NCBI GenBank assembly: GCA_947570695.1
Contig: CANOVB010000004.1
Location: 97,092 to 161,091, forward strand
DNA: 64,000 nucleotides
Origin: an uncultured Clostridium sp.
GTDB lineage: Bacteria; Bacillota; Clostridia; TANB77; CAG-508
Direction of reading: 5' to 3'
This document shows positions 49,073 to 63,036 of this stretch, in pieces. The notes below the pieces were generated by a model that was not told where the DNA came from, ran no database searches, and saw nothing but the letters and a program-made list of their open reading frames with translations. The position numbers were made by a program, and so were the translations under genes. Each line of letters opens with the position of its first letter. Position 1 is the first letter of the stretch.

Positions 49073-49449
49073 ACTTTTTCCTCCGTTTTCTTTTGATGTA
49101 ATAGGTATTTACGCCTTGCCAAAGATACTGGATCATCTCCCTTCCATTATTCGAATTTAGAGATTTTGCCTAAAGTACTAACTTTGATATTATACAATAC
49201 TTTTGTTCAATTAGCAACAAATTCGTTAAAATTATGTTAACTCTTTAGGAACAAGTCCGAAAAAATCAAAAATTCATAAGTAAATCTTTGTGCAAGTTTT
49301 ACAAATTCCTTTATATTATAAAGTTGCAGGTAATTTACTATAGTAAAACAAAAGATGGTATTATGATAATTGCAAAAAAAAAACTAAATGTAAATGTCCT
49401 CGTCTTTCCTATAATATAAATAAAAAACCATTCTTTTACTAGAATGATT

Positions 49450-50850
49450 TTAGTTATTTTCATTTATACTAATAAACACAGTTTCTTTTTCTGAATTAAT
49501 TTCTATTTGTATTTTTCCAATCTCAGCAAACTTAATATTTTCGCTTTTCATTTTATCTATTGCAACAAAAAAATTATTATTTTTAATTTCTTCTACAAAT
49601 TTACTTTCATGAGCTTTAGGCATAAAATAAATTGTATATACTTTTAGTTTTTCTTTTCCTTCTATATAACTAATTAAATTTAGTAATTCAGCATATACTT
49701 TTATTGTTAAATTTATATCATTTAATGATTTCATTAGTGGACTTACATATCTCATTAGCCTTAAATTGTACATATTTTCTATAAATTCGTTTTTGTCTAT
49801 ATTATAACTTTTTAATATGTCATCTAACTTATTTTTTAAAACCTCAAATTTTATTTTTCCGGCAGTATCGCAAATTCTTTCTATTGCAACTTTTTCTTTA
49901 TTTCTATTATGTTTTTCTCCATTAATAATTTCTTTAAAAAATATATAGCAATCTTTAGTCCTTTGATATTTTGAATCATCCATTATGCTTTCATCTACTC
50001 CTGTTATATCACTATATCCCATTACAAATAAAACTTCAGGAATCTGTTTTTTTATATTTGCAATTTCTGGTATATTCTCTATTAGATTTCTAAAAGATTG
50101 TTCAACAAATTCATCATTTGCTTCTGTAGACAAAGCACTTATTAAAGTATGATAAGATATTAATATTTGCAGTGTTTTAATTAAATTTTCTAAACTTATT
50201 TTTATTTTATTTTCATCTAACTTATTTTGAGTTAATCCAATCTCTTCTAAAACTTTCTCAACATATTTGCTACCTAATACATCATGATATGTTATATCCT
50301 CAATAACACCTATATCATGAATTAAACAAAAAACTTTTAATAAGAATCTAGATTCAAAGCTTAAAGTTTCATATATGTTATGTAATTCATTTAATTGTTC
50401 CTTACTCTCTTTACTTCCATTAAAATTAGTAATTTCAATATTTTTAGGTATATTGTAGTTTGCAATCTGATAAACATATAATGTATGTGCCATCCAGCCA
50501 TTCATTTTATAGGTATTTGTTCCGCCTCTAATAATAGTGTTTTCTCTTTTTAATATAGTGCTTATTTTATCTATATAATTTTCATTATTATTATATTTGC
50601 TATAAATAATCCATAAATATTTTATAGAATTTTCATCCAATATTAAGTCTATAAAATCTGATTTTAATTTTTCTAAATCTATCTGTATTTTATTAGAATT
50701 AGAAAATGTTTCTTGTTCTTTTTTTCTCAAATCATCTTGAAGTTTTTTATCTGTTACTTTTTTTAAATTTAATGCTAATTCCTTATAATATTTATCATAA
50801 CTAAAATTCAGGTCTTTTTCAGTTATATTTTTTATTCCATAAAATTCCAT
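49450..50850 (-). CDS. HD-domain protein (hypothetical phosphohydrolase)
   Basis: 466 aa. HD motif in FCLIHDIGVIEDITYHDVLGSKY. Remainder uncharacterised. Confidence 0.5.
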   Translation of the reverse strand: MEFYGIKNITEKDLNFSYDKYYKELALNLKKVTDKKLQDDLRKKEQETFSNSNKIQIDLEKLKSDFIDLILDENSIKYLWIIYSKYNNNENYIDKISTILKRENTIIRGGTNTYKMNGWMAHTLYVYQIANYNIPKNIEITNFNGSKESKEQLNELHNIYETLSFESRFLLKVFCLIHDIGVIEDITYHDVLGSKYVEKVLEEIGLTQNKLDENKIKISLENLIKTLQILISYHTLISALSTEANDEFVEQSFRNLIENIPEIANIKKQIPEVLFVMGYSDITGVDESIMDDSKYQRTKDCYIFFKEIINGEKHNRNKEKVAIERICDTAGKIKFEVLKNKLDDILKSYNIDKNEFIENMYNLRLMRYVSPLMKSLNDINLTIKVYAELLNLISYIEGKEKLKVYTIYFMPKAHESKFVEEIKNNNFFVAIDKMKSENIKFAEIGKIQIEINSEKETVFISINENN

Positions 50851-50872: not shown

Positions 50873-51517
50873 TTAATTTTTCATAATCCATTTTATATCT
50901 TCAATAGATTTATCAATGTTAAATCTTCCATTTCCTATTGGATAGTATACAGAATAAAACTTATATTCTTTACCATTAATTTCTTTTTTAAATAGCTTTT
51001 TTCTGCATTGTGATACTGATATTTTTTCATTAAGTATAATCGAACTCACTTGATTTCCAAATAAAATAATTACTTTAGGATTTACTATTTCTATCTCAAG
51101 TTTTAACAAATCCAAATATTCTCTATAAACATTATCTGGAAGTGGTCTTGCATCTATTTGAGTACATTTCCCTAAATTTGTAATAAAATACTTATGATTT
51201 TCCACATCTTCATATACTTTTTCTGCAAATTTTTCTGTCCAGTCATTTGGTTTAATTGTTTTTATTTTTTTATAAATATCTTTATCCATTAAATCTAATT
51301 CATAAAATAAATCCCAAATATTTTTAGTTCCAATCCATGGAGATTTTCGTCCTTTCCATTCTTTTGAAGAAGCAATATTCCTTCCTGTAGGATTCATAAA
51401 AACAAAACAAATTTCTGGATTTCTTGTGCACCCTCCATTATATATTGAATCTAAATTTTCTGCTCCATATTTTTTCTGTAATTTATCATATTCTAATTTT
51501 AAATCTTCTAATTCCAT
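50873..51517 (-). CDS. Uracil-DNA glycosylase superfamily protein (family-4-like)
   Basis: 214 aa. CFVFMNPTGRN in place of motif A, FITNLGKCTQ (family-4 YITNxVKC-like), ILFGNQVSS (motif B region). Confidence 0.6.
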   Translation of the reverse strand: MELEDLKLEYDKLQKKYGAENLDSIYNGGCTRNPEICFVFMNPTGRNIASSKEWKGRKSPWIGTKNIWDLFYELDLMDKDIYKKIKTIKPNDWTEKFAEKVYEDVENHKYFITNLGKCTQIDARPLPDNVYREYLDLLKLEIEIVNPKVIILFGNQVSSIILNEKISVSQCRKKLFKKEINGKEYKFYSVYYPIGNGRFNIDKSIEDIKWIMKN

Positions 51518-51584
51518 TATTTATTCCTATTTGCTATACTTGCATTATTTTTAACTGTTCTTTATATTTATGTATTTTCACTCT

Positions 51585-52175
51585 TTAATTTAAACTATCT
51601 TTTTCTAACTTCTCTCTTATTATTTCTAATGCTTTTCTTCTTGCACTGATTTCATTTTTTTCGTGCATACTTAATTCAGCTAAAGTTTTTCCATTTTCTA
51701 GTTCAAAAATTTCATCAAATCCAAATCCATATTCTCCTCTTGGAGCCTCTGCTATATAACCATCTAAAATTGTAACTGCTGTAATAACTTTTTCTCCTTC
51801 TGCTAAAGCAATAGCTGTTATACATTTTACTTTCCTATTTTCTTTGCTAACACCTTTTAATTTATTTACAATTTCCAAATTTCTATCTCTGTCACTTCCT
51901 TTATGCCATCTTTTAGTATATACACCTGGAAATCCATTTAAATATTCAATTTCCATTCCAGTATCATCTGAAATACATTTTTTTCCATTTAAATGTTTTG
52001 ATATTTCAGTTGCTTTTTTAATAGCATTACCTTCAAAAGTATCTTTATCTTCTTCAACATCAATATCATCTGATACTTCACTTAATGGTATTATTTTAAA
52101 TTCGCTTAAAATTTCTTGTGCTTCTCTTATTTTTCCTTTATTACCAGAAGCAATTACTATTTCATCTTCAGACAT
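51585..52175 (-). CDS. rdgB: Non-canonical purine NTP pyrophosphatase (ITPase, RdgB/HAM1)
   Basis: 196 aa. IVIASGNKGKIRE, FEGNAIKKA, SDDTGMEIEYLNGFPGVYTKRW motifs. Confidence 0.9.
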   Translation of the reverse strand: MSEDEIVIASGNKGKIREAQEILSEFKIIPLSEVSDDIDVEEDKDTFEGNAIKKATEISKHLNGKKCISDDTGMEIEYLNGFPGVYTKRWHKGSDRDRNLEIVNKLKGVSKENRKVKCITAIALAEGEKVITAVTILDGYIAEAPRGEYGFGFDEIFELENGKTLAELSMHEKNEISARRKALEIIREKLEKDSLN

Positions 52176-52198
52176 AATTTTCTCCTTAAGGATTGATT

Positions 52199-52507
52199 TT
52201 ATTCACTTTTTAAATCATGATAATATATGATTTCTTTTCCAAGTTTTTGTGCATATTCAATTTCACTTTTAGTGCTACTTCCTATATATCCGTTCACATC
52301 AACAACAAGTATTGAATCAGACAATTTTATTTTCTCTTTATGCATTTCATCTAAAACTTTTACTTCTTCTTCAGAATATGCATCTTTATCAGGATTTGTT
52401 GGATAAATCACAGTTAGCACACAATTTCCTTTTAATTCCATTTCTTCTGCAATTTTCATCATTTCATCTTTAAATTTTAAACTTCCACAGATTGTTATTA
52501 TTTTCAT
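52199..52507 (-). CDS. Nucleoside 2-deoxyribosyltransferase/DNPH1 (Rcl)-like protein
   Basis: 102 aa. KIITICGSLKF resembles the DNPH1 YFCGSIRGG nucleotide-binding motif in a flavodoxin-like fold. Short, so the call is tentative. Confidence 0.45.
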   Translation of the reverse strand: MKIITICGSLKFKDEMMKIAEEMELKGNCVLTVIYPTNPDKDAYSEEEVKVLDEMHKEKIKLSDSILVVDVNGYIGSSTKSEIEYAQKLGKEIIYYHDLKSE

Positions 52508-52528
52508 TTAATTTATTCCTCCTATTTT

Positions 52529-52855
52529 TTATTTAGTTAATTCATAACTTTGGTCTATTAACTCTTTTACTAAATTACTATCTATATTATTATTTAAAAT
52601 AATTGTATTCCAATGTTCTTTGTTCATGTGATATGCTGGAATTATATATTCGTACTCATTTCTTAAAAGCTCTGAATATTCGGGATTAGTTTTTATATTT
52701 AAATATATATTTCCTTTTACCTCCATCATAAGAGCAAACCATTTTTTATTTTTTTTGTGTTTCATTACAACAGAAATGTTATCATCTTCAAATGGGTAAT
52801 CTTCAAAAGTGTTTTGTAGAGTTAAACAATATTTAATAACTTCTGATTTATTCAT
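52529..52855 (-). CDS. MmcQ/YjbR-family protein
   Basis: 108 aa. C-terminal PAYHMNKEHWNTIILN…LIDQSYELT matches the YjbR family signature (AYHMNKKHW…L.D.SY.L). Confidence 0.65.
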   Translation of the reverse strand: MNKSEVIKYCLTLQNTFEDYPFEDDNISVVMKHKKNKKWFALMMEVKGNIYLNIKTNPEYSELLRNEYEYIIPAYHMNKEHWNTIILNNNIDSNLVKELIDQSYELTK

Positions 52856-52901
52856 TATATAACCACCTTTAAAAAATGGAAATAAAAATTAAGGAATATC
52901 C

Positions 52902-53726
52902 TTAATTTTCACTTCCATTCATGTAATTAATATATCCATTATCAATATTTCGCCAAGTATCTATTTTACTATCTAAATTCTTCATATCTAATTCATTACT
53001 TGAAATGGTTTGATAATTTTTTACTATTTCTTCTTTATATTTTTGTGGACATCTTCCTATTATTCTTGCTATATCTGAATATTTATCTCCAACTCCTGCA
53101 AATCCAAAATCTATAATAGCTGAAATATGATTATTTTCATCTAATAATATGTTACTAGAATTTAAATCTCCATGTACTAAACATGGCTCTTTTGAATCTG
53201 TAAAACTACTACAATTCCAAAACTTTCTATCTTTTTCACTTAAAAATGTATTTACAAGTTCATCTAAAAAGTCTTTAAGTTCTGTCCAATTTTCTTGCTC
53301 ATCAATTTTTATATTATGCAGTTGAACCATAAATTTTGATATTTCATTTGAAACCTCTTTCACTTCTTCTGGTTTCAAATCTTCCATTTTTTCTGCTAAT
53401 GTAACTCCTTCTATTTTTTTATGTACACTAAATGGTCTTCCTTCATCATAAACTAAATTTAATTTTACTGTATTAAAATCAGTTTTATTATGAATAAACT
53501 GAGAAAATTTTGCATCTTTTACTATTGTTTTTATCCAAAAGTCATTTCTTGGAAATCTGAAAAAGAAATCCCCATTATCTGTATGAGCTTCAAACACCAT
53601 ATTTGTCCACCCTGTAGATATTGGTTTTATTTCTAAAACATTAAATTTCTTTAATGTATTTTTTATTATTTTTTCAAAATCTTCATCTAAGGTAAAATAT
53701 GTTTTTTTCAATGTAAATTCCTCCAT
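52902..53726 (-). CDS. Aminoglycoside/small-molecule phosphotransferase (APH-like kinase) family protein
   Basis: 274 aa. Brenner motif LVHGDLNSSNILL and IDFGFAGVGD (DFG-like). Confidence 0.7.
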   Translation of the reverse strand: MEEFTLKKTYFTLDEDFEKIIKNTLKKFNVLEIKPISTGWTNMVFEAHTDNGDFFFRFPRNDFWIKTIVKDAKFSQFIHNKTDFNTVKLNLVYDEGRPFSVHKKIEGVTLAEKMEDLKPEEVKEVSNEISKFMVQLHNIKIDEQENWTELKDFLDELVNTFLSEKDRKFWNCSSFTDSKEPCLVHGDLNSSNILLDENNHISAIIDFGFAGVGDKYSDIARIIGRCPQKYKEEIVKNYQTISSNELDMKNLDSKIDTWRNIDNGYINYMNGSEN

Positions 53727-53755
53727 TTATATAAAAATACTCTTACAAATTATGA

Positions 53756-54322
53756 TTATTTCATTTCATTTTTTATTGCATTTATTACTTCATCATCAGT
53801 TTCTTTAGTATACCTATTATATATGATTTTGTCAAACATTTTTCTTAAATTTTCATCTGTACAAATTTTATTATAATGATCTTTTATTTCTGCTATTCTA
53901 TCTTTTTCTACCTCTGGTTTTAGATGTCGTTCTTTTGTTTTTTGTATCGGAATTTCAAGACTTTCAGGTAATAAATAAAGTGTTTTAAGATTCTTACATA
54001 CTTTTTTTATATTAGCAAGCTCTGTGTAATGTAATTCAAATACCATATTTTTGTCTGTAAAAAAATCTTCATTTTTATAAGCATAAATATTTCCTAAATA
54101 TTCAAATTCATAAGCTATTTTTTCTTCATCTTTTAGGTTTTGTAGTTCATCTTTTGTAACAAATATCTTGTCCTCATTATTTTTTTCACCAGTTCTCATT
54201 TCTCTAGTTGTTATAATTTTAACTTTATTAAAATTTAGTTCATTAACAATTTTATCTTTATAATAAGATTTTCCAACACCCGTAACTCCTGCAATACCCA
54301 ATAACATACTAAATTCCTCCAT
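53756..54322 (-). CDS. Guanylate-kinase-like P-loop nucleoside monophosphate kinase
   Basis: 188 aa. P-loop GIAGVTGVGKS. GK signature ITTREMRTGEKNNEDKIFV (TTRxxRxGE…Y/F-x-FV). Confidence 0.55.
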   Translation of the reverse strand: MEEFSMLLGIAGVTGVGKSYYKDKIVNELNFNKVKIITTREMRTGEKNNEDKIFVTKDELQNLKDEEKIAYEFEYLGNIYAYKNEDFFTDKNMVFELHYTELANIKKVCKNLKTLYLLPESLEIPIQKTKERHLKPEVEKDRIAEIKDHYNKICTDENLRKMFDKIIYNRYTKETDDEVINAIKNEMK

Positions 54323-54875
54323 CAGCTATCTTATTTATTTTTTCTTCTAATTCTAACCAGTTATTTACTCTTTCTATATTTGTATCTATTGTTTTATTAA
54401 CATCAGATGTAAATAAAATTCCTTTTATATTTTCTTCTTGAATATCACTACAATATTTAGCAGAATCATCTACCATTACATCAATATTATTTTCTTTACA
54501 AATTTTAGCTTTTTCAAAACAGTCAAATAAAATTTTAGTATATCTTATATTATTTTCTTCAAAATATTTTAAGGTTAAATCTACAGAATCTTTATAGTTT
54601 TGTTCTCCTCTTGAAGTAACAATAAAAATTTCATTTCCAGTATCTAATAATCTTTTCATAACTGTACTTGCATTTTCTTTAACTTTAGCATTTTTAAAAA
54701 TTTCTATACAATTATTTTTAATAAAATTCTTTACATTTTCATTAGGAATTTCACCTCTCATAACTTCTACCATATATTTTGAAACATCACCTGTTTTGTC
54801 ATATTTATTAATATATTCTTTCATTGATAACGATGTATCTGTAATTACATCATCAATATCTATTCCTATTCTCAT
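54309..54875 (-). CDS. HAD-superfamily 5'(3')-deoxyribonucleotidase-like protein
   Basis: 188 aa. N-terminal RIGIDIDDVITDT (DxDx[TV] motif I). Thr/Ser motif II FIVTSRG. C-terminal Asp cluster VMVDDSAKY. Confidence 0.6.
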   Translation of the reverse strand: MRIGIDIDDVITDTSLSMKEYINKYDKTGDVSKYMVEVMRGEIPNENVKNFIKNNCIEIFKNAKVKENASTVMKRLLDTGNEIFIVTSRGEQNYKDSVDLTLKYFEENNIRYTKILFDCFEKAKICKENNIDVMVDDSAKYCSDIQEENIKGILFTSDVNKTIDTNIERVNNWLELEEKINKIADGGI

Positions 54876-54976
54876 TTTTACTCCTTAAAATTATATTTTG
54901 TTTTTACATTTTAGCATACTTTTACTAAATTTACAATCATTATACATATACATGCTAATTTTATCATTTTTAAAAT

Positions 54977-55387
54977 TTATTTTACTAAATCTAAATTTCC
55001 ATTTATTACTATTGGAGAAAATGCCGATAGCTCATCATATAGCATACCTTCTGGAATATCATTATAAAAATATATTTTTTTATTTTTCATAAATGCTTCA
55101 TAAACCTCAATAAAAGTTGCTCCTCCAATATAATTTTTCTTTCCGTTTTTATCAAAATTTAATGTTAATACAGCATCCATTTGAGCAATTCTTTCTTCAC
55201 TCATTCTAAACATTCTTGATTTAAATTCTGCATGTTCTTTTTTTCCTAATTTCCAACTTTTCTTTTCTGCATCTATATCAAAATAGGAATTTGGATATTC
55301 AACTATATGACCTTTTTCTTCCAATTTATTTTTTATTGGTTCTATATCTTTATAAAACGCTTTACTACAAATAATTAATATTCTCAT
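54977..55387 (-). CDS. Second DNPH1/nucleoside 2-deoxyribosyltransferase-like protein
   Basis: 136 aa. RILIICSKAFY … MDAVLTLN … YIGGATFIEVYEAF, a flavodoxin-like layout analogous to the 52199-52507 product. Confidence 0.4.
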   Translation of the reverse strand: MRILIICSKAFYKDIEPIKNKLEEKGHIVEYPNSYFDIDAEKKSWKLGKKEHAEFKSRMFRMSEERIAQMDAVLTLNFDKNGKKNYIGGATFIEVYEAFMKNKKIYFYNDIPEGMLYDELSAFSPIVINGNLDLVK

Positions 55388-55450
55388 CTTTTATTCTCCT
55401 TTATTTTATAATTCTTTATTTTTTGCTATAATTTTGCACATTTAAACTTT

Positions 55451-56005
55451 TTATTTTAAATAATTTATAATATTCTCAAATGTATCATATCCACTTTCAC
55501 TATTGATATGTCCGGCATTTGGTATAAATACTTGGTTTTCTGTAACTGTATCTGCAAACTTTTTTTCTGCTTCATATTTTACATAAGGATCATTATCTGA
55601 ATAAAAACAAATAATTTCACTTGCAAATTTCTTTACATCTTCTAAATTATCAAAATACATTGATTTATTTACAGTATCATATTCTTCATTTATTCCAAAA
55701 TAGTTATTAAATCCACATACAAAAATTAATTTTTTAACTTTTATTTTATTATCCACTAAAAATTTTGATATAAATACTGGTGCAATACTATGACCTATCA
55801 ATACAGTATTTTCATTTATTAATCCTAAATCTAAATAATATCTTAGTAGATTACTCCAATTTTCATAGTTTTGATATCCAATTCCAATAGGGAAATTAGG
55901 TACATATACTTGTTTCCCTTCACTTTCTATATACTCATGTAACCAGCCTATCCAATTTGAATATGGGCTACTATATGATCCATGTATTATAAAATAATTT
56001 TCCAT
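55451..56005 (-). CDS. Alpha/beta-hydrolase (YdeN/RBBP9-like serine hydrolase)
   Basis: 184 aa. Nucleophile elbow GHSIA. C-terminal D…H (PNAGHINSESG). Confidence 0.6.
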   Translation of the reverse strand: MENYFIIHGSYSSPYSNWIGWLHEYIESEGKQVYVPNFPIGIGYQNYENWSNLLRYYLDLGLINENTVLIGHSIAPVFISKFLVDNKIKVKKLIFVCGFNNYFGINEEYDTVNKSMYFDNLEDVKKFASEIICFYSDNDPYVKYEAEKKFADTVTENQVFIPNAGHINSESGYDTFENIINYLK

Positions 56006-56044
56006 ATACTTATACTCCTTTAATTTTCTTTAAATATTTTTCAT

Positions 56045-56491
56045 TTAGTTATTTAGACCTTTAAAATTATCTGATAAGGTTATATCCATCCATGTAAACA
56101 TTTTTCCTTTTGTAAATCCATACTTCTTATAAAACTCAGTTGCTTCATCTGCCAAGCAATTTACATTATTAAATTTCCTATTTTTTAATTCTTGCAAAAT
56201 TCTATCTAATATAGCTGTACCTATCTTATTTTTTCTGTATTCTGGTAATACATAAATATTTTCTATTTCTGCCTTTCCTAATGATTTATTTAAGTTTACT
56301 ATAGAAAATCCTACAATCTTTTCTTCCTCCTCTACAATATAAAATATAATATCTTCTTTATTAATACAGTTTTCTAATATTTCTTTTGGCCAAAATATAA
56401 CAACATTTTCAGCAGTTTTAAATTCAGATACGTTATTTCCTATATTCCAAACTTCTTGTACATCTTCTTTTTTTGCTGTTCTTATTTTCAA
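56045..56491 (-). CDS. GNAT-family N-acetyltransferase
   Basis: 148 aa. Acetyl-CoA binding segment VLPEYRKNKIGTAILDRILQEL (Q/RxxGxG/A pattern). Confidence 0.75.
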   Translation of the reverse strand: MKIRTAKKEDVQEVWNIGNNVSEFKTAENVVIFWPKEILENCINKEDIIFYIVEEEEKIVGFSIVNLNKSLGKAEIENIYVLPEYRKNKIGTAILDRILQELKNRKFNNVNCLADEATEFYKKYGFTKGKMFTWMDITLSDNFKGLNN

Positions 56492-56592
56492 TTTTAGATT
56501 CCTCCATACATTTTATTTACATTCTTCTAGTTTTACTAATAAATTGTACATTTCATTTCTATCTTCTTTTCTTTCTAAATTATCTAACCTTT

Positions 56593-57213
56593 CTATTGTA
56601 TATTTTCTCCAAATAATATTTCCTTTGCTTCTATTAATTCAAATTTATTATTGTTATATTCTAATATTGTAGTTGCTACGTCGTCTATTTTCTCAATTTT
56701 TTTGTTTATATTTAATATATTTTTGAATATACTTCTATGTACTCCACTATGTGTTACTATTGCAATTTTATCTAAATCTTTACTATCTTTTATTATAAAA
56801 TTAATGGCCTCTTTTACTCTTTTATCAAATTCTTTAATATCTTCTCCACCTAAAAATGTTTTTCCTAAATAATATCCTATATTTTTATACTCTTGTTTTT
56901 TATATACATAGGAAAATATTTCTTCTGCTAATTCCTTATTTACTCCAGATCTAATTCCATGAGAATTTAATTCTCTAATGTCATCTATAATTTTCATTTC
57001 TACGTTTATATTCTTATTAAGCAGTTGGGCTGTTTGATATGCTCTTTTATATGGACTTGTATATATTTTTTCTATCCCGTAATTTCTTATTTGTTTTTCG
57101 CGTTCTCTTACTTTATTTTTTCCAGCTTCTGTTAGTTCAAAATCTGCAATTCCACCATAACAATTTTCTATATCATCTATAGATTGGCTATGTCTTATTA
57201 AGTAAATTATCAT
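56593..57213 (-). CDS. Histidine phosphatase (phosphoglycerate-mutase-like) family protein
   Basis: 206 aa. N-terminal IYLIRHSQS (RHG-type catalytic His) and a later VTHSG. Confidence 0.75.
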   Translation of the reverse strand: MIIYLIRHSQSIDDIENCYGGIADFELTEAGKNKVREREKQIRNYGIEKIYTSPYKRAYQTAQLLNKNINVEMKIIDDIRELNSHGIRSGVNKELAEEIFSYVYKKQEYKNIGYYLGKTFLGGEDIKEFDKRVKEAINFIIKDSKDLDKIAIVTHSGVHRSIFKNILNINKKIEKIDDVATTILEYNNNKFELIEAKEILFGENIQ

Positions 57214-57230
57214 ATTTTATATTCTCCCTC

Positions 57231-57806
57231 TTATTTTGCAAAAAGTATACTTACTATATTTTCATATTTTTCTTTTAATACTTCTTTTGTTCTTTGACTT
57301 AATTTATTATAATCTCTTTCTAACTTTTTCTTTACAAATTCAGTTCCCTCTTCTAATGATAGCCCCATTTCATTTTTTCCAAATGCTAAATGAAATAAAG
57401 AAGGAATACAATCAAAATGTGCCATAACATCTGCGTCTGCTACACATTGCTCTTCTATAGTATTTCTAGGTAGATCTTTACTGCCTCTATGCCTTAATAT
57501 ACATTCTTTCACACTTTCTTTTCTGTCTTGTGGATAATTAAGTTTTGTTAGTAATTCATCTGCTATTTTCGCACCATAAATATTATGTTCTTCTCTAGGT
57601 CCAAATTCTGAAGGCATTGCTATATCATGTAATAATGCTCCCAATTCTACAATTTCAATATCAGCCCCATATTTTTTAGCTAATTCTATAGCATTTTTTA
57701 CAACATATTTAATATGATCATTCCAAAAATCATAATTATATTTTTCATTATATATATTACATCTTTTAAGTAATTCTTTTTTTATATCATTTACTATATC
57801 ACTCAT
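57231..57806 (-). CDS. HD-domain phosphohydrolase
   Basis: 191 aa. H…HD motif (GALLHDIAMP), downstream His/Asp (CILRHRGS, ADADVMAHFD). Confidence 0.7.
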   Translation of the reverse strand: MSDIVNDIKKELLKRCNIYNEKYNYDFWNDHIKYVVKNAIELAKKYGADIEIVELGALLHDIAMPSEFGPREEHNIYGAKIADELLTKLNYPQDRKESVKECILRHRGSKDLPRNTIEEQCVADADVMAHFDCIPSLFHLAFGKNEMGLSLEEGTEFVKKKLERDYNKLSQRTKEVLKEKYENIVSILFAK

Positions 57807-57876
57807 AGTTTTTCCTCTTTACTAAATTAATTTATTCTTACATTATATTTTTTAAATCATTTTATACTTAATATTT

Positions 57877-58554
57877 TTAATCATTCTGTTTTATTACTTT
57901 TTTTACTCTATCAATAAACTCTATTTTGTTAGATAATGCTTTTCTTAAATTTTGAATTGATCTTTCAAATTCCTTGTCTTCTAAATATATTTTTGCATAT
58001 CCACATTCTCCATATTTTTCTGTTAAATGTCGATATATTTCTTCTATTTGCTCCTCTTCTGTAAATTCTGGAAAATTCTTCAATCCATATGAATATGTTC
58101 TCCTTATAACATTATCTATATTAATAATTGCCCTATCTGCTGTACTAATTATTTTTCCATATATACTTCTAGGTTCGCGATTACTTGATGCTCTATGATC
58201 CTCTATTGCTTCTTTAATAATTTTTCTTTCCTCATCCGTAAACCATTTCTTCATATTTTCGTCTTTCATAAACATTTCAGCTGATATAATTTCATGTGTC
58301 TTTCTATCTATATAATGACCTATATCATGATAAGATGCTATTGTATAAACTATATCTAAATCAGCATCATAATTTTTTGCTAATTCTAAACTTCTTTTTA
58401 TTACTGTTTTTATGTGTTCTATTCCATGCCCTTCTTCATTTCTACTATACAATGGAAATATTTTATTTGTTATATATTGTATTATTTCTTCATCTATTTC
58501 ATTTTTAATATTTAATAGCGTTTCATTATTTTTATCTTTTAAAATTTCATTCAT
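57877..58554 (-). CDS. HD-domain phosphohydrolase
   Basis: 225 aa. HGIEHIKTV … IASYHDIGHYIDRKTHEI … EDHRAS, consistent with the HD superfamily. Confidence 0.7.
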   Translation of the reverse strand: MNEILKDKNNETLLNIKNEIDEEIIQYITNKIFPLYSRNEEGHGIEHIKTVIKRSLELAKNYDADLDIVYTIASYHDIGHYIDRKTHEIISAEMFMKDENMKKWFTDEERKIIKEAIEDHRASSNREPRSIYGKIISTADRAIINIDNVIRRTYSYGLKNFPEFTEEEQIEEIYRHLTEKYGECGYAKIYLEDKEFERSIQNLRKALSNKIEFIDRVKKVIKQND

Positions 58555-58647: not shown

Positions 58648-58690
58648 TAAAGAGATAAAGTTTCTTTACTTTATCTCTTGTATATCTGGT
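58648..58690 (-). terminator. Rho-independent terminator downstream of the PEP-utilising phosphotransferase gene
   Basis: 10-bp stem AGAGATAAAG/CTTTATCTCT with 8-nt loop, U-rich 3' on the minus strand. Confidence 0.5.
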
Positions 58691-58735: not shown

Positions 58736-61195
58736 TTATTTTAAAATATATACTTTTCCATTATATGCATCTAATTCTATCATTTGCCCATCTTGTATTT
58801 CTTTTGTTCCATTTATTGTTCCCACAATACAAGGTACATTAAATTCTCTAGAAAGAATCGCCGCATGACATGTAATTCCACCTTCATCAGTTATGAAGCC
58901 AGATGCTTTTTCCATTGCTGAAACATAGTCAGGAGTTGTCATTGTTGCTACAATTATATCTCCTTTTTCTACTCTATAAATATCTTGATATTTGGTTAAA
59001 ACTCTAGCTATCCCTTTTACTTTTCCTCTATTTGCAATACTTCCTGAAATTATTTTGCTATTAGATTTTTCTTCTTCATCACTTGATGTTTTGTAGGCTT
59101 TTGCAATTTCATCTTGTAATTGCAAACTTTCATTTCCAAATACAGTCTGAACATTTCCATTAATCCAAATCATAGCAAAACCTTTTTTCCTATTTTCAAG
59201 TACATTTTTTATTTCTCTACTAATAATTCCTTGATTTTTCAAAATATCTAATATTTCTTTATCATCAAGCATAATCAAATTCTTATTTTCAATTCGAGTT
59301 CTATTAGAAATCTCTTCAAAAATCGTATGTCTTCCCACATAGAATAAATGGTCTGAATATTCTGTTGTATATGTTCTTAAAAATATAAAATTTCTTATTG
59401 CTGTAATTAATTTTTTAGCTCTATGAGTAAAATTATATTGTTCTAATATCTTTTCATATTCAATATCATTATTTTTTCTAACATTATTGATATTTTCAAT
59501 TTTCTCTTCTATATCATCATTTATTAAATTGTCTAATCTTAATAAATAATCTTCTTTCGTAAAAGCAGTATCTTCAAATTCTACAGGTCCCCTTATCCAT
59601 GAATATTGTTGAACATGTTCGTCAATTAATTCTTCCACATTTTTACCATTTTTGATTTTCAATGCTAATTTTAATAAATCTAATGGTTCTTCACTATATG
59701 AAAGTTGGAAATAATTAGGACATGTAGAAATCTTTGAAAATATAATCTCAATATCTTTTTCACTAAAGTTTTCATTAATTAATTCTTTTTCTAATCTATA
59801 TATCAAATAATCCTCTGGTCTTGTCATTCCAGGTATAAAGCTTTTAATATATAGATTATTAAACATTTCCATCTCTTCATATAATTCATTAAAACTTAAT
59901 GTTTCTAGGTTTTTGTTTTTCAAATATTTTAAATAATCTTTAATTTCTTCCACCAAATCAAATTCTATTTTTGCAAATTTTTCAAAAAAGTTAATATCAT
60001 TTTGTAAATAGTTATCAAGTTTTTTACATAATAATTCAAAATCTGAATCTAATAAATATTCATCACCATTTAGACATAAATAATTTTGAGTTGCAATTTC
60101 AAATCCTAATAATTCATTTTGATATTTTTCTAAGCTTGCATAAATTTCTGTATTTTCTACAAACCAATTAAATTTTCTTGAAACATAAAATTTCCAATTT
60201 CCTATTTTCTTTATTTTCTCTACTAATTCATTTTTCTTTATTGTAGTAATAGGTCTACATTGCAAAATATATATTTTACCATTTTCAATTCCATATTCTA
60301 TATCTACTGGAAAACCATAAAAATCCTCAATTTTCTTAACTAAATTAGATAATTTTAAAACAATTTTATCATCTAATTTTTGTAAATTTCCATCTTTGAC
60401 TTCTAGCCATTTATTTATTCCATTTTCTTTAACTAATTTAGTTTTTTGACATTTTATTGCTTTGTTTATTATTGTATTATCTTTTTTACTTATAGTATAA
60501 TTATCTGGAGTTATCTTCCCTGATACAATAGCTTCTCCTAATCCTAAAGCACTTTCAATAACAATTTCATCTAAATTATTATTAGTTGGATTTATTGAAA
60601 ATGCTACACCAGACACATCACTTTGTAACATTTTTTGTACAATAACAGCAACTGTTATATCTGATTTATCATTATTTTTTATTCTATAAAAGATAGCTCG
60701 TGGACTAAAAATTGAACTCCAACATTTCTTTATGTTTTCTATAATATTCATTTCATCTACGTTTAAAAATGTTTCTAATTGTCCTGCCCATGCATGATTT
60801 ACTCCATCTTCTGAAGTTGCTGATGATCTTACCGCAACATATTTACAATTTAATTCTTTATAACTTATCATAATTTCTTTTTCTATAGTATCTGATATAT
60901 AGCATTTTGAAATAATTTGAGTTATTTCATTTGATTTATTTTCTATATCTTTTTCATCATTTATATTACATCTATTAATTATTTCTTGTATTTTTTCTTT
61001 AACATTATTTTCATCTAAAAATTTATCAAATACATTTGCCATAATTATATATCCATTTGGTATATTAAACTCATTCTGATACATTTTTGCTAGAGATGAT
61101 CCTTTTCCACCAACGCTATCTATTTCACTAATATCCTTAAAAAACTTTACATTCATATTCATTCTCCTATCAAATCTAAAATTATAGTTTCCCAA
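58736..61195 (-). CDS. PEP-utilising-enzyme family phosphotransferase (rifampin-phosphotransferase-like architecture)
   Basis: 819 aa. N-terminal PEP-synthase/PPDK-type ATP-grasp domain (SVGGKGSSLAKM…). C-terminal swivelling phosphohistidine domain (GGITCHAAILSREFNVPCIVGT) at the extreme C-terminus with no TIM-barrel PEP domain after it. This is the RPH domain order, not the PpsA order. Confidence 0.7.
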   Translation of the reverse strand: MGNYNFRFDRRMNMNVKFFKDISEIDSVGGKGSSLAKMYQNEFNIPNGYIIMANVFDKFLDENNVKEKIQEIINRCNINDEKDIENKSNEITQIISKCYISDTIEKEIMISYKELNCKYVAVRSSATSEDGVNHAWAGQLETFLNVDEMNIIENIKKCWSSIFSPRAIFYRIKNNDKSDITVAVIVQKMLQSDVSGVAFSINPTNNNLDEIVIESALGLGEAIVSGKITPDNYTISKKDNTIINKAIKCQKTKLVKENGINKWLEVKDGNLQKLDDKIVLKLSNLVKKIEDFYGFPVDIEYGIENGKIYILQCRPITTIKKNELVEKIKKIGNWKFYVSRKFNWFVENTEIYASLEKYQNELLGFEIATQNYLCLNGDEYLLDSDFELLCKKLDNYLQNDINFFEKFAKIEFDLVEEIKDYLKYLKNKNLETLSFNELYEEMEMFNNLYIKSFIPGMTRPEDYLIYRLEKELINENFSEKDIEIIFSKISTCPNYFQLSYSEEPLDLLKLALKIKNGKNVEELIDEHVQQYSWIRGPVEFEDTAFTKEDYLLRLDNLINDDIEEKIENINNVRKNNDIEYEKILEQYNFTHRAKKLITAIRNFIFLRTYTTEYSDHLFYVGRHTIFEEISNRTRIENKNLIMLDDKEILDILKNQGIISREIKNVLENRKKGFAMIWINGNVQTVFGNESLQLQDEIAKAYKTSSDEEEKSNSKIISGSIANRGKVKGIARVLTKYQDIYRVEKGDIIVATMTTPDYVSAMEKASGFITDEGGITCHAAILSREFNVPCIVGTINGTKEIQDGQMIELDAYNGKVYILK

Positions 61196-61578
61196 TCTTT
61201 TGTAGGTAGTACTCTTATTTCTGTTTTTTCATCATCTCCATAATATTCACTAATAACATTATCGAATTTTTTATTTTTTATTTCTTTAGCATTTTTTGCT
61301 GATAATTTTATTGATTTATTATTAATTCCATTTTCTATTATTAATTCTTTTGTTCTAAATGAAATTGATAAATTACATATATCTTTTTTCATAAGACTAT
61401 TAAAATAGCTCATAAATGTTGCAAACTCTTCATTTGAAGCATCTCCATAAAATACCATATTAATGATATGATTTTCTTTTTCTCCAATTTTCTCTAGATT
61501 TTTCTTGAATAATATAATTTTATTTATATCCATGAACTTCTTTCTGTCATATTCAAACATTAATACATATCTTTTCAT
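61159..61578 (-). CDS. Hypothetical protein
   Basis: 139-aa ORF overlapping both neighbours by a few codons (translational coupling). No motif recognised. Confidence 0.4.
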   Translation of the reverse strand: MKRYVLMFEYDRKKFMDINKIILFKKNLEKIGEKENHIINMVFYGDASNEEFATFMSYFNSLMKKDICNLSISFRTKELIIENGINNKSIKLSAKNAKEIKNKKFDNVISEYYGDDEKTEIRVLPTKDWETIILDLIGE

Positions 61579-62618
61579 ATCTCTATTCCTCCATCTTCCT
61601 TAAGATTTATTATTGAAATTAATTTTTCAATACACTGTGCAATTCCATCTGAATTTTTCCAATCTCCAACAATAATATTTCTGTCATTATATGCTTTTTT
61701 TCCAATATTAGATAGTGCTATAAATACAGTAGAAATTCCTAATTTCTTCATTCTTTCTTTATTTTCTGTATACATTTTTAAATCTTCATCTTGAGAATCT
61801 CCTCCTATTATTATAAAAGGAATTTCATATTTTTCTTTTAATTTCTTTGTTATCATTAATACTGATTCAGATTTTGAATGTTTTTTAGGTTTTATATCAC
61901 ATTCTTTTCCATAAGAATCATAATAAGTAACTGATTCTATATCGTCATATCCAAATATATTTTCTATTTGTTCACTCACTCTTGCTAAATCCGTTCTAGT
62001 TATATCATCAAAAACAATATTATACATACTTGTAACTTCTGGACTTATTTTTCCTGCATATTGCTTAACAATATTTTCTATTTCTGGTCTTTTTTCTAAT
62101 ATCCTAGTATCTAATGTTAATAATTGACTAGATTTATCCTTTTTAATAATAAACCCACAATATTCTGCAACTACTCCATCAAATAAATTAGGAATGCCAT
62201 AATTTTCTGCTAATTCACAAAGTAACTTATATTTACTTTTAGCTGATTCAAATGATGAACCTGTAATCATTGTTATTTGTACTTCTGAATTAAATTTTGA
62301 TTGTAGTGCTATAATTGAATCAAAAATTTTTTTTACATTTTCTGCTCCGCCTTTTAATAATAAATCAGTAGTTCCAGAATAATCTAAAAACAAGGGAATA
62401 ACTCTTTTTTTATTTATCTCTTTATATTTTAGAATATCACCTGGCTGACATTCTAAAATTCTACATATTTCATCTAACGTACTAAATCTAATTGCAGAAA
62501 TATTTCCGTTTTTAATATTTGACAAATTTACTGGAGAAATTCCTACTTCTTCTGCTAATTTTACAAGATTATATCCTTTTTCTTTCATTATCTCTTCTAA
62601 ATTTGTAATAATTGCCAT
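61575..62618 (-). CDS. XRE-type HTH regulator fused to a HAD-IIB-like (Cof/sucrose-phosphatase-like) domain
   Basis: 347 aa. N-terminal HTH GYNLVKLAEEVGISPVNLSNIKNG. C-terminal FLDYSGTT (degenerate DxDGT motif I, second Asp replaced) and GGDSQDED (motif IV-like). Confidence 0.6.
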   Translation of the reverse strand: MAIITNLEEIMKEKGYNLVKLAEEVGISPVNLSNIKNGNISAIRFSTLDEICRILECQPGDILKYKEINKKRVIPLFLDYSGTTDLLLKGGAENVKKIFDSIIALQSKFNSEVQITMITGSSFESAKSKYKLLCELAENYGIPNLFDGVVAEYCGFIIKKDKSSQLLTLDTRILEKRPEIENIVKQYAGKISPEVTSMYNIVFDDITRTDLARVSEQIENIFGYDDIESVTYYDSYGKECDIKPKKHSKSESVLMITKKLKEKYEIPFIIIGGDSQDEDLKMYTENKERMKKLGISTVFIALSNIGKKAYNDRNIIVGDWKNSDGIAQCIEKLISIINLKEDGGIEI

Positions 62619-62635
62619 AACTTATTACCTCCATT

Positions 62636-62669
62636 TTAATATATAAATTATATCACTATAACAGTGTTT
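62636..62669 (-). promoter_or_regulatory. Candidate sigma-A promoter for the HTH/HAD-like regulator operon
   Basis: Minus strand TTGACA - 18 nt - TATAAT. The -10 ends about 20 nt before the ATG. RBS GGAGG precedes the ATG. Confidence 0.4.
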
Positions 62670-63036
62670 TTGTCAATTTCATATCGCTTATCATATTTTA
62701 TTATTCGTTTATCATAATTATTAAGTTGGAATGTATTATAAATAAAAAAGAAAGCCTTTTACCCAAGACTTCCAATTTAAGTTTTATCTCTAAACATTTA
62801 TATTTTTTATTATTAAATTATTACAATATTAAGACAATGTAGTGCAGCAAGTTGAAACATTCTCTAAATATTTCATAAGTAATCTGTAACTCACTTCGTT
62901 CGAACAGCTTACTTAACTACTTCGCACACCATGTCAACTTCTATCGTTACCCTAATTTTATTATTTTCTACTCTTTTTATCTTATTTCTGCCTTTTCTCT
63001 CAAAGATAATAAAATCTTCAAAAGCTGTAAATTCAA

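Follow-up and report, generated by a model that had tools for sequence, protein, structure and literature searches.

A tightly conserved three-gene operon around a dikinase of rifampin phosphotransferase architecture in a gut Clostridia bacterium

Rifampin phosphotransferase (RPH; L. monocytogenes 5HV1/5FBS, NCBIfam NF041857) has an N-terminal ATP-grasp domain, a helical substrate domain and a C-terminal swivel His. RPH depends on Arg666/Glu667 of this substrate domain (PMC4844700). Small-molecule substrates of enzymes with this architecture are rifampin, phenols/hydroxyphenylethanones and zearalenone (PMC4844700, PMC12167813, PMC11768653). PpsAB (phenylphosphate synthase), CreHI and HpeHI are two-component phenolic dikinases; they have RPH-like folds and the same ATP-grasp and substrate-plus-swivel logic (PMC12167813). 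Among RPH-like and PPDK-derived proteins, at least two are reported as regulators and not as small-molecule kinases: PspR, a PPS-like regulator of Haloferax (PMC10948481), and VadK, a PPDK-derived kinase of M. tuberculosis reported as a histidine kinase (PMC13400623). HAD phosphatases hydrolyse the aspartyl phosphate with a water molecule that the second Asp, as general acid/base, activates (PMC8069645).

The window is the whole 64-kb stretch of DNA that was analysed, from a gut Clostridia bacterium. Three co-oriented ORFs, confirmed on its minus strand at the positions given by the sequence-only reading and here called A, B and C (Table 1), constitute a self-contained, tightly conserved and undescribed module within a largely unexplored group of enzymes. 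All 15 non-redundant loci carry the three genes and have no other gene in common, their flanks being unrelated. A, B and C are organised as a single operon, which has a perfect sigma-70 promoter and terminator-like hairpins on both flanks; promoter (12/12 matches), operon structure and terminator (58679-58650) are as given by the sequence-only reading. The upstream hairpin (62750..62773) is the end of an upstream tRNA-methyltransferase transcription unit and the 5′ boundary of the operon. The claim that the three genes overlap by a few codons holds for A and B (4 nt, ATGA), the sole overlap, through which B is predicted to be translationally coupled to A; it does not hold for B and C, since the ATG of C lies 2 nt after the stop codon of B. 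Translational coupling is predicted for C too. This ATG (61156; 806 aa) is almost certainly the start of C, and not the TTG at 61195 that gave the earlier length of 819 aa, because a length of about 806 aa and an initial MxIKFF are shared by more than 100 homologues, and AGGAGA lies upstream.

Table 1. Features of the A-B-C operon and of its flanks (positions in the window)
Feature	Position	Strand	Characteristics
Terminator-like hairpin upstream of the operon	62750..62773	-	9-bp stem, T tract
Distal conserved box GATAAACGAATA, within ATGATAAACGAATA	62702..62713	-	candidate operator for protein A
Proximal conserved box GATAAGCGATAT	62681..62692	-	candidate operator; abuts the -35 hexamer
Sigma-70 promoter TTGACA-18 nt-TATAAT, TG extended -10	62647..62676	-	12/12 matches
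RBS of gene A, GGAGG	62628..62632	-	kept in the alignment of upstream regions
Gene A, XRE-type HTH head and HAD-IIB-like domain (predicted)	61575..62618	-	347 aa
A residues 6-66, Cro/C1-type HTH (HTH_26)	62421..62603	-	68 bits vs cutoff 22
A residues 72-347, predicted HAD-IIB-like domain	61578..62405	-	
Asp79 codon	62382..62384	-	putative HAD nucleophile, possible phospho-acceptor
Gene B, orphan alpha/beta protein	61159..61578	-	139 aa; ATGA overlap with A
Gene C, RPH-architecture dikinase, corrected start	58736..61156	-	806 aa
C residues 13-314, PEP-synthase-type ATP-grasp domain	60215..61120	-	GGK18, R110, E287, Q299-x-R301 invariant
C residues 315-729, central domain with RPH substrate-domain fold	58970..60214	-	mainly helical
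C residues 730-800, phospho-His swivel domain	58757..58969	-	motif TDEGGITCH764AAILSR
Catalytic His764 codon	58865..58867	-	His777 in 819-aa numbering
Terminator-like hairpin after C, operon end	58650..58679	-	12-bp stem

The -35 and -10 hexamers are kept across loci in the alignment of upstream regions. Two boxes about 21 nt apart lie upstream of the -35 hexamer. The position and sequence of the distal box are kept in most of 11 aligned orthologous upstream regions. The proximal box is the sole match with one mismatch or less to the box consensus in the window. As the box is not enriched window-wide (34 occurrences with 2 mismatches, against an expectation of 33), it is conservation that makes the distal box a candidate operator.

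Profile searches found two families in C (residues of the 819-aa ORF), PPDK_N (26-327, E 6.7e-91) and PEP-utilizers (743-813, E 3.2e-25); the PEP-utilizers_C TIM barrel (PF02896) is absent. The motif GGITCHAAIL, noticed earlier, is present in the C-terminal swivel domain. His764 and the ATP-grasp residues listed in Table 1 are invariant in 33 homologues. The central domain has its own family-specific invariants (R327, LNGDEY 362-367, H514, Y518-S-W520, R540, R560, R588, R594-T595, E634, R656). W520, E634 and R656 are invariant even in very divergent modules, across which R327, R540 and R594-T595 are nearly invariant. These positions fit a second active site that has been retained.

In the AlphaFold model of C, which is confident (mean pLDDT 88.3), the central domain is helical. 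Foldseek ranks RPH first (5hv1, E 2e-41), with an alignment of 917 columns over the whole chain; with PEP synthase 2ols, the alignment is confined to the ATP-grasp domain (359 columns). The central domain contributes to the RPH match, since an ATP-grasp-only entry (5hv6_A) reaches just 1.2e-21 and swivel-only matches about 1e-6, vs 2e-41. An RPH-type domain order, different from that of PEP synthase or PPDK, had been proposed, with a central TIM barrel as the mark of a truncated PEP synthase. The whole-chain alignment, the lack of a TIM barrel and the modelled helical domain bear out this order, and C is not a truncated PEP synthase.

A carries the XRE-type HTH head recognized by the sequence-only reading. 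The HAD-IIB-like assignment of its other domain stands at the level of the family and is remote, the window protein itself being under the Pfam cutoff for S6PP (16.7 vs 20.3 bits). Of 25 family members, 12 match Trehalose_PPase (best E 9.5e-5), 12 match S6PP and 5 match Hydrolase_3; all these matches fall on one region of A and are under the Pfam gathering thresholds. A PDB profile search with A returned HTH proteins only (PezA, SinR) and no HAD structure. The putative motifs I (D79-Y-S-G-T), II (T119-G120), III (K249) and IV (G272-G-D274..E278-D279) are in the order found in HAD-IIB (Cof-type) phosphatases, and the II-III spacing fits a large C2-type cap. Asp79, T119, K249 and D274/D279 are invariant in the family. 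By contrast with HAD-IIB phosphatases, Asp+2 of motif I is always Ser/Thr, so that efficient hydrolysis is not expected. This degenerate DxD had been taken as a sign of ligand sensing instead of catalysis. Such a reading does not fit a nucleophile and motifs II-IV that are invariant, Asp+2 alone being altered; the site looks like one selected for an altered phosphoryl chemistry. Another difference from HAD-IIB phosphatases is the DNA-binding head to which the domain is fused in most members of the family. This head is swappable (XRE, RelB ribbon-helix-helix or none), and one locus (L093) carries a HAD-only A. Such headless versions indicate that the HAD-like protein belongs to the core of the system and does more than sense on behalf of a regulator. 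A is thus more than a regulator, and the "dedicated sensor-regulator" proposed from the sequence is an incomplete description.

On balance, and with modest confidence, A-B-C is read as an autoregulated operon around an ATP-dependent dikinase, C, which would act like RPH on what is most probably a small molecule. By homology to RPH, PpsAB and HpeHI, ATP would be bound by the ATP-grasp domain; His764 would attack the beta-phosphate, the gamma-phosphate leaving as Pi and AMP being released; the swivel domain would then swing over to the helical central domain with the phosphoryl group, which would there be transferred onto a hydroxyl of the bound substrate (expected reaction: ATP + X -> AMP + Pi + X-P). 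The HTH head of A would bind both candidate boxes beside the -35 hexamer. Its HAD-like domain, which would have kept the phospho-accepting Asp and lost the general acid/base residue, may bind a phosphoryl compound such as the product of C, or be covalently phosphorylated by it, and so set the expression of the operon. B belongs to an orphan family and could be an obligate accessory subunit.

A role of C in central carbon metabolism, as a full-length or truncated PEP synthase or PPDK, has a practically negligible probability. Its ATP-grasp and swivel domains are nearest in sequence to archaeal/bacterial PEP synthases (8a8e, E 4e-75), and its GGxTCHAAI motif is PEP-synthase-like, GGxT[C/S]HAA with the regulatory Thr being common to C and PpsA/PPDK. 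The domain architecture refutes this identity: C has no PEP/pyruvate-binding TIM barrel, its swivel domain is C-terminal and not central, and a 415-residue helical domain of RPH type separates it from the ATP-grasp domain. Both PEP synthase models also score under their cutoffs (NF005057, 401.7 vs 598 bits; second model, 376.8 vs 739.75). The architecture of C is that of RPH, and APH, GNAT and metallo-beta-lactamase-fold genes lie near the module in several loci; a true RPH orthologue or another antibiotic resistance phosphotransferase, with a dedicated drug-sensing repressor, is nevertheless very improbable. C is about 22% identical to RPH overall, and its matches to RPH in sequence run through the ATP-grasp and swivel domains only. 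Neither the rifampin-binding domain nor any other characterised substrate domain resembles its central domain in sequence. Scores are far under the curated cutoffs (RIF_Ptrans_rph, 275.7 vs 999 bits; RPH_KJ151292, 171.8 vs 1700), and at H-2 of the swivel His, C has the PEP-synthase-type Thr where RPH has Met (PMC12167813). The HAD-like domain of A resembles phosphatases and not a typical drug-binding fold, and the gene for C comes with two obligate partners, which RPH lacks. The family is moreover broadly conserved, with orthologues in CPR bacteria; identity between the central domain and CPR proteins is 40-44%, which suggests a common, conserved substrate and not one particular drug. C is consequently rejected as an RPH orthologue, and the antibiotic- or rifamycin-inactivating kinase of the sequence-only reading is not established.

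PspR and VadK are a precedent, by analogy, for a dikinase scaffold that need not phosphorylate a small molecule; in the present operon, DNA binding is predicted for A, a protein distinct from C, and C has lost none of its catalytic residues. P-type ATPases, with their DKTGT motif, form stable aspartyl phosphates, and the active sites of HAD proteins and CheY superimpose. C might then be a sensor dikinase that passes the phosphoryl group from His764 to Asp79 of A, whose HAD-like domain would be the receiver. The aspartyl phosphate would be long-lived for want of the Asp+2 general base, and would switch DNA binding by A, or another output if A is headless, with B as adaptor or modulator. The invariant HAD-like motifs, the constant Ser/Thr, the strict linkage of the three genes and the predicted translational coupling agree with such a phosphorelay, which is still considered rather unlikely. 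Strong purifying selection on the central domain, and its active-site-like invariants, are as expected for an enzyme that phosphorylates a substrate. No protein was seen to join A or B to C; in P0109, C is joined to a second module. No A or B was found in the examined flanks of the CPR proteins of C-type central-plus-swivel organization, which match the central-domain motifs; this points to an enzymatic role of C that is independent of A and B. The existence of such relatives would also be unexpected for a toxin. A toxin-antitoxin-like or defence module, in which C would phosphorylate an essential or invading target and A, as an autoregulating antitoxin with enzymatic activity, would undo or intercept this modification, is quite improbable. 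It would account for a compact cassette with unrelated flanks and for a swappable head of A that resembles those of PezA and HipB, swapping of this kind being typical of antitoxins. Against it, PADLOC gave no match for B or C and weak HTH matches only for A, the annotated flanks have no integrase or transposase genes, the GC content of the operon (24.1%) equals that of its surroundings, and the divergence of A, B and C tracks lineage, which suggests vertical inheritance.

The substrate of the small-molecule dikinase favoured here is most probably not rifamycin specifically. CPR and DPANN relatives of C are split into separate ATP-grasp and substrate-plus-swivel ORFs, as are PpsAB, CreHI and HpeHI, whereas C is a single fused chain. 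Unlike in these systems, no aromatic-catabolic genes were found near C, and no HAD-like or orphan partner comparable to A and B is reported for them in the literature examined. The xenobiotic role proposed earlier has circumstantial support. Against it, the central domain is strongly conserved between Clostridia and CPR, which would not be expected for a niche xenobiotic. The support comes from 2 of 15 lineages: in L092, the order is A-B-FMN_red-C-MatE, with gaps of 10-20 nt and the MatE exporter gene after C, and in L090, FMN_red and APH genes lie directly upstream. The variants with FMN reductase and MatE are a hint of a phenolic or quinone-type xenobiotic as substrate.

Genes A (HTH head and HAD-like domain), B (orphan protein) and C (dikinase of RPH architecture; RPH, rifampin phosphotransferase) lie on the minus strand, the coding strand of the operon region. 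The operon has a G+C content of 24.1%, the same as its surroundings (window, about 25%), and no mobility genes were seen around it. The stop codon of A and the start codon of B overlap (ATGA). Since the homologues of C (more than 100 full-length proteins) have about 806 aa and an N-terminus of the form MxIKFF, and since an ATG preceded by AGGAGA is found at 61156, 2 nt past the TGA of B, gene C is assigned to this start and not to the TTG of the ORF first listed. The ORFs, promoter and terminator given by the sequence-only reading are retained; its start for C and its statement that all three genes overlap are corrected.

Features of the operon and of the genes located 3′ of it (window positions)
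Feature	Position	Strand	Details
Terminator-like hairpin, upstream of promoter	62773-62750	minus	
Conserved boxes, candidate operators	62702-62713 and 62681-62692	minus	
Sigma-70 promoter	62676-62647	minus	12/12 match, TG extension
Ribosome-binding site	62632-62628	minus	GGAGG
Gene A	61575-62618	minus	ORF, 347 aa
Gene B	61159-61578	minus	ORF, 139 aa
Gene C, first listing	58736-61195	minus	819-aa ORF from TTG
Gene C, corrected	58736-61156	minus	ATG start, 806 aa
Terminator-like hairpin, after C	58679-58650	minus	
HD	57877-58554	minus	
HD, second	57231-57806	minus	
Histidine phosphatase	56593-57213	minus	
GNAT	56045-56491	minus	
Serine hydrolase	55451-56005	minus	
NT5C deoxynucleotidase	54309-54875	minus	
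Guanylate-kinase-like protein	53756-54322	minus	
APH-family kinase	52902-53726	minus	
Ham1/ITPase	51585-52175	minus	
UDG-superfamily protein	50873-51517	minus	

In the gene contexts of C homologues having 49-84% identity, A, B and C are found in constant order and the flanks are unrelated. An all-against-all comparison of ORFs gave A, B and C as the only groups present in 15/15 non-redundant loci; the next most frequent neighbour group, NUDIX/HD, is found in 6/15, and no further conserved neighbour was detected in these loci. A and B are absent beside the C relatives of loci L020 and L021 (39% and 36% identity, respectively) and of loci L066 and L072 (28% identity), and apparently also beside P0113, a protein 46% identical to C. 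Stand-alone central-plus-swivel proteins from Woesebacteria and Shapirobacteria share 40-44% identity and the motifs with C; neither A nor B was found near them. Because these more distant relatives occur without A and B, the enzymatic role of C seems to be independent of both; A and B are a lineage-specific addition.

The C relatives of L021, L066 and L072 adjoin AdoMet_dc/radical-SAM genes. They (28-36% identity) are located directly 3′ of these genes (L021:2651-6782, L066:629-7900, L072:656-8067). In L021, AdoMet_dc and radical-SAM are fused in one 604-aa protein and an ABC transporter also adjoins; in L066 and L072, a large protein (about 800-830 aa) is found alongside, that of L066 having no Pfam match. 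These loci look like a biosynthetic or RiPP-like cluster built on the same kinase scaffold.

C carries two Pfam domains, PPDK_N (E 6.7e-91) and PEP-utilizers (E 3.2e-25), and no Pfam match to the PEP/pyruvate-binding TIM barrel (PF02896). An AlphaFold model computed from the family alignment (mean pLDDT 88.3) has a mostly helical region between the terminal domains (residues about 310-700). When this model was compared with the PDB by Foldseek, the top match was RPH-Lm, the Listeria monocytogenes RPH (5hv1, E 2e-41, 917 columns), the alignment covering the entire 847-residue target. Other matches included the ATP-grasp fragment 5hv6_A (E 1.2e-21), PEP synthase 2ols (just 359 columns) and swivel-only entries (E about 1e-6). 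Given the full-length match and the helical model, the central domain is predicted to have the fold of the RPH substrate domain. Pfam, AlphaFold and Foldseek thus agree on the order ATP-grasp, helical substrate-binding-type domain, C-terminal swivel His. PEP synthase and PPDK have a mid-chain swivel domain and a C-terminal TIM barrel, whereas C has its swivel domain at the C-terminus and no barrel. The RPH-type order noticed in the sequence-only reading is borne out; a central TIM barrel, which according to that reading would have pointed to a truncated PEP synthase, is not found in the model. Truncated PEP synthase is ruled out by the missing barrel, the helical centre and the C-terminal swivel domain.

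All NCBIfam matches of C are far under cutoff and restricted to the terminal domains: PEP synthase NF005057 (401.7 bits, cutoff 598), TIGR01418 (376.8, cutoff 739.75), PigC (290.5, cutoff 1300), RPH NF041857 (275.7, cutoff 999) and RPH NF000283 (171.8, cutoff 1700). Likewise, phmmer and a 33-sequence family profile searched against the PDB align residues about 3-320 and about 700-806 only; PEP synthase 8a8e slightly outscores RPH, and no central-domain homology to the rifampin-binding domain was detected by these searches. ATP-site residues (GGK18, R110-S-S, E287, Q299, R301) and the swivel motif T756-DEGGITC-H764 are invariant in the 33 sequences. The ATP-grasp site and the swivel motif T-x-x-G-G-x-x-x-H place C in the superfamily of PEP-utilising dikinases. 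Its swivel motif corresponds to the PEP synthase consensus GGxT[S/C]HAA, regulatory Thr included, whereas RPH and HpeH have Met at the position of this Thr (alignment; PMC12167813). The fold, the domain scores, the invariant catalytic residues and the PEP-synthase-like swivel motif indicate that C works like an RPH-type dikinase, by homology, and is not an RPH orthologue. Orthology with RPH was rejected because of the curated cutoff and the missing similarity in the substrate domain.

The central residues of C that are invariant in its family are W321, R327, LNGDEY362-367, H514, Y518/W520, R540, R560, R588 and T595. When C is aligned with very divergent modules of CPR, of DPANN and of further Clostridia, W520, E634 and R656 are still invariant and R327, Y367, E490, Y518, R540 and R594-T595 nearly so. 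The second phosphotransfer of RPH requires Arg666/Glu667 of the substrate domain (RPH-Lm numbering; PMC4844700). From sequence alone, the conserved R594-T595, E599, E634 and R656 of C are candidates for this Arg-Glu pair, and it is plausible that the central domain retains a second active site.

The head of A is an XRE/Cro-type HTH (Pfam HTH_26, 68 bits, cutoff 22). In the PDB, the A profile matched only HTH proteins (PezA and SinR among them), with no HAD match. Window A scores 16.7 bits with S6PP, below the 20.3 cutoff. Among 25 members of the A family (E <= 1), 12/25 match Trehalose_PPase (best 9.5e-5), 12/25 S6PP (best 1.6e-4) and 5/25 Hydrolase_3; these are HAD-IIB families and their matches share one region of A. 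The C-terminal domain is thus probably HAD-like, remotely. In motif I, FLD-Y-[S/T]-G-T-T-D, the nucleophile D79 is invariant and Asp+2 is always Ser/Thr, never Asp (25 sequences plus the loci), whereas motif I of HAD-IIB proteins, DxDx[T/V], has two Asp; A keeps the first only. Motif II (T119-G120), motif III (K249) and motif IV (G-G-D274..E278-D279) are invariant and in the HAD order; the distance from motif II to motif III, about 129 residues, leaves room for a large cap insert. The four motifs have the correct spacing, and Asp+2 is the sole systematic departure.

P-type ATPases have Thr at Asp+2 (DKTGT) and their aspartyl phosphates are long-lived. In HAD phosphatases, Asp+2 serves as general acid/base, activating the water that hydrolyses the aspartyl phosphate (PMC8069645). 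Since the motifs are invariant and the only change is Asp+2 to Ser/Thr, and given the role of this residue in both groups, the site of A looks selected for binding or accepting a phosphoryl group with slow turnover. The "degenerate DxD" described previously holds for Asp+2; a decayed site does not fit the invariant nucleophile and motifs II-IV.

The A family comprises 125 clusters (word-indexed search). The DNA-binding head is a RelB ribbon-helix-helix in P0237-P0239 (homologues of A) and in locus L090 (L090:3494-4594). It is absent in L093 (L093:4203-5512), where A is HAD-only (280 aa with DWTGT, matching the A profile at E 7e-62) and B is strongly diverged (154 aa, E 7e-7). Locus L092 encodes a second, headless A-like paralogue with DYSGT (L092:13762-14718); a gene for a Y-family polymerase and an ORF of 144 aa lie upstream of it. 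Because the head is interchangeable or absent, the conserved core of the module is the HAD-like protein, B and C.

The B family comprises 197 clusters (word-indexed search) and has no Pfam domain. An exhaustive profile search of 1.84 billion representatives returned only 18 proteins, all <=145 aa, and no fusion. The partner families A and B are closed. B is predicted to fold compactly into an alpha/beta structure (model pLDDT 80), for which no PDB match was obtained at E <= 1e-3. B was rejected as a diverged HAD and as a part of A (hhalign probability 1%).

In an alignment of the 130 nt located 5′ of A in 11 loci, the -35 and -10 hexamers are conserved, as are two direct copies of a box of about 12 nt, ATGATAAACGAATA / CGATAAACGATAT, about 21 nt apart and directly 5′ of the -35; the AT-rich sequence around the boxes is otherwise unconserved. 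The window contains no excess of the box motif (34 found, 33 expected, 2 mismatches), so the two boxes are a candidate operator by conservation and position. The palindrome CACTGTTATAGTG of the promoter spacer was rejected as operator, being unconserved across loci. Farther upstream, a non-coding region of about 260 nt (62774-63036, minus) with locally higher G+C separates the stop codon of a tRNA (uracil-5)-methyltransferase-like gene from the terminator-like hairpin of that gene. This region has no Rfam match and a fold z-score of -1.4, and none of its ORFs (21-55 aa only) is convincing; an ncRNA, riboswitch or small ORF was rejected there.

The account judged best, and somewhat probable, is that A-B-C is an autoregulated system in which C would phosphorylate a small-molecule substrate by the RPH mechanism, A would be the operator-binding partner, its HAD-like domain reading a phosphoryl compound, and B would be an obligate accessory. 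The observation on which the sequence-only reading was built is confirmed, and its interpretation as an antibiotic- or xenobiotic-inactivating kinase with a dedicated sensor-regulator is supported in part. A true antibiotic RPH is highly improbable and a PEP synthase practically inconceivable. A toxin-antitoxin or defence module is very unlikely; known defence systems were rejected, as PADLOC gave no match for B or C and only weak HTH-type matches for A.

The phospho-Asp site of A, intact except for the general base, leads to two hypotheses, a covalent product sensor or a His~P receiver. In the latter, the swivel His of C would transfer its phosphoryl group to Asp79 of A. This relay is unlikely: the receiver-like chemistry of the A site and the strict A-B-C linkage argue for it, whereas the C orthologues devoid of A and B argue against it. 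No HisKA, HATPase_c or Response_reg domain was found by Pfam in A, B or C, and any His-to-Asp transfer here would be only an analogy with classical two-component systems. Distinctly unlikely is a new type of phosphorelay, in which a dikinase of PEP-synthase/RPH type would load its swivel His from ATP and then phosphorylate the nucleophile Asp of a HAD "receiver". Devoid of the general base, as in DKTGT of P-type ATPases, this receiver would form a persistent aspartyl phosphate and would be coupled to swappable DNA-binding heads (XRE, RelB or none), with B as dedicated adaptor. If the relay is true, the receiver function of response regulators would have been solved a second time, independently, by the HAD fold.

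Some flanking genes bear on the substrate of the preferred small-molecule kinase. In L092, the operon genes follow one another as A-B-FMN reductase-C-MatE, 10-20 nt apart (L092:4924-10771; the reductase is NAD(P)H-dependent and the MATE efflux pump begins 10 nt after C); in L090, FMN reductase and APH genes are directly upstream. FMN reductase and MatE are a weak and circumstantial pointer to quinone/phenolic compounds, on which several characterised relatives act (PMC12167813, PMC11768653). NUDIX, HD, NTPase, dCMP deaminase and nucleoside hydrolase genes are found in the flanks of other loci. In the window, a run of small genes of house-cleaning/detox type (50873-58554, minus) lies 3′ of the operon terminator. 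The neighbours are circumstantial evidence and fit a role in "sanitising" or detoxifying small molecules. The system would be relevant to how the gut microbiota metabolises xenobiotics if its substrate were a dietary polyphenol, a quinone or a drug.

A distinct dikinase subfamily, well populated among gut Clostridia and related to proteins of CPR bacteria, is defined by this locus. The two uncharacterised partners of C, A and B, offer a concrete handle on a substrate and a regulatory logic that would both be new. RPH-architecture dikinases are a large unexplored group according to their discoverers, with substrate affinities yet to be determined (PMC4844700); the few known substrates are rifamycins, phenolics, zearalenone and prodiginine precursors. 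Split two-component RPH-type versions (PMC12167813) and regulatory offshoots of dikinases (PMC10948481, PMC13400623) are known, and "rph-like" genes of CPR Microgenomates are listed in one survey on the basis of similarity alone (PMC8651080). No description of the A-B-C trio or of the CPR/DPANN arrays described below was found in the literature searched.

Loci L023 and L026-L089, from MAGs of CPR/Patescibacteria and DPANN archaea and from a few MAGs labelled Gammaproteobacteria or Chlamydiae, have one PPDK_N ATP-grasp ORF (about 320 aa) beside arrays of 2-7 tandem paralogous ORFs, each encoding a variable domain of 250-400 aa and a C-terminal swivel-His (for example L032:5959-15313, L035:431-9238, L023:4145-12289, L084:5788-14697). 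Giant fusions are found in L023 (2714 aa, 5 swivel domains), L084 (2969 aa, 6 swivel domains) and L037 (1917 aa). The arrays suggest modular multi-substrate kinase systems, one nucleotide domain serving many substrate modules, in organisms of minimal metabolism. P0109 (1172 aa) combines in one chain a C homologue (44% identity) and a further substrate-plus-swivel module, which has a GGIMSH motif of its own; it links the single-module type of Clostridia to the multi-module type of CPR and was rejected as a Rosetta-stone A-C fusion.

Elsewhere in the window, positions 46000-50000 have a G+C content of 32-36% (about 25% in the rest) and include a gene (47114-49072) whose 652-aa product has a TPM-phosphatase domain.
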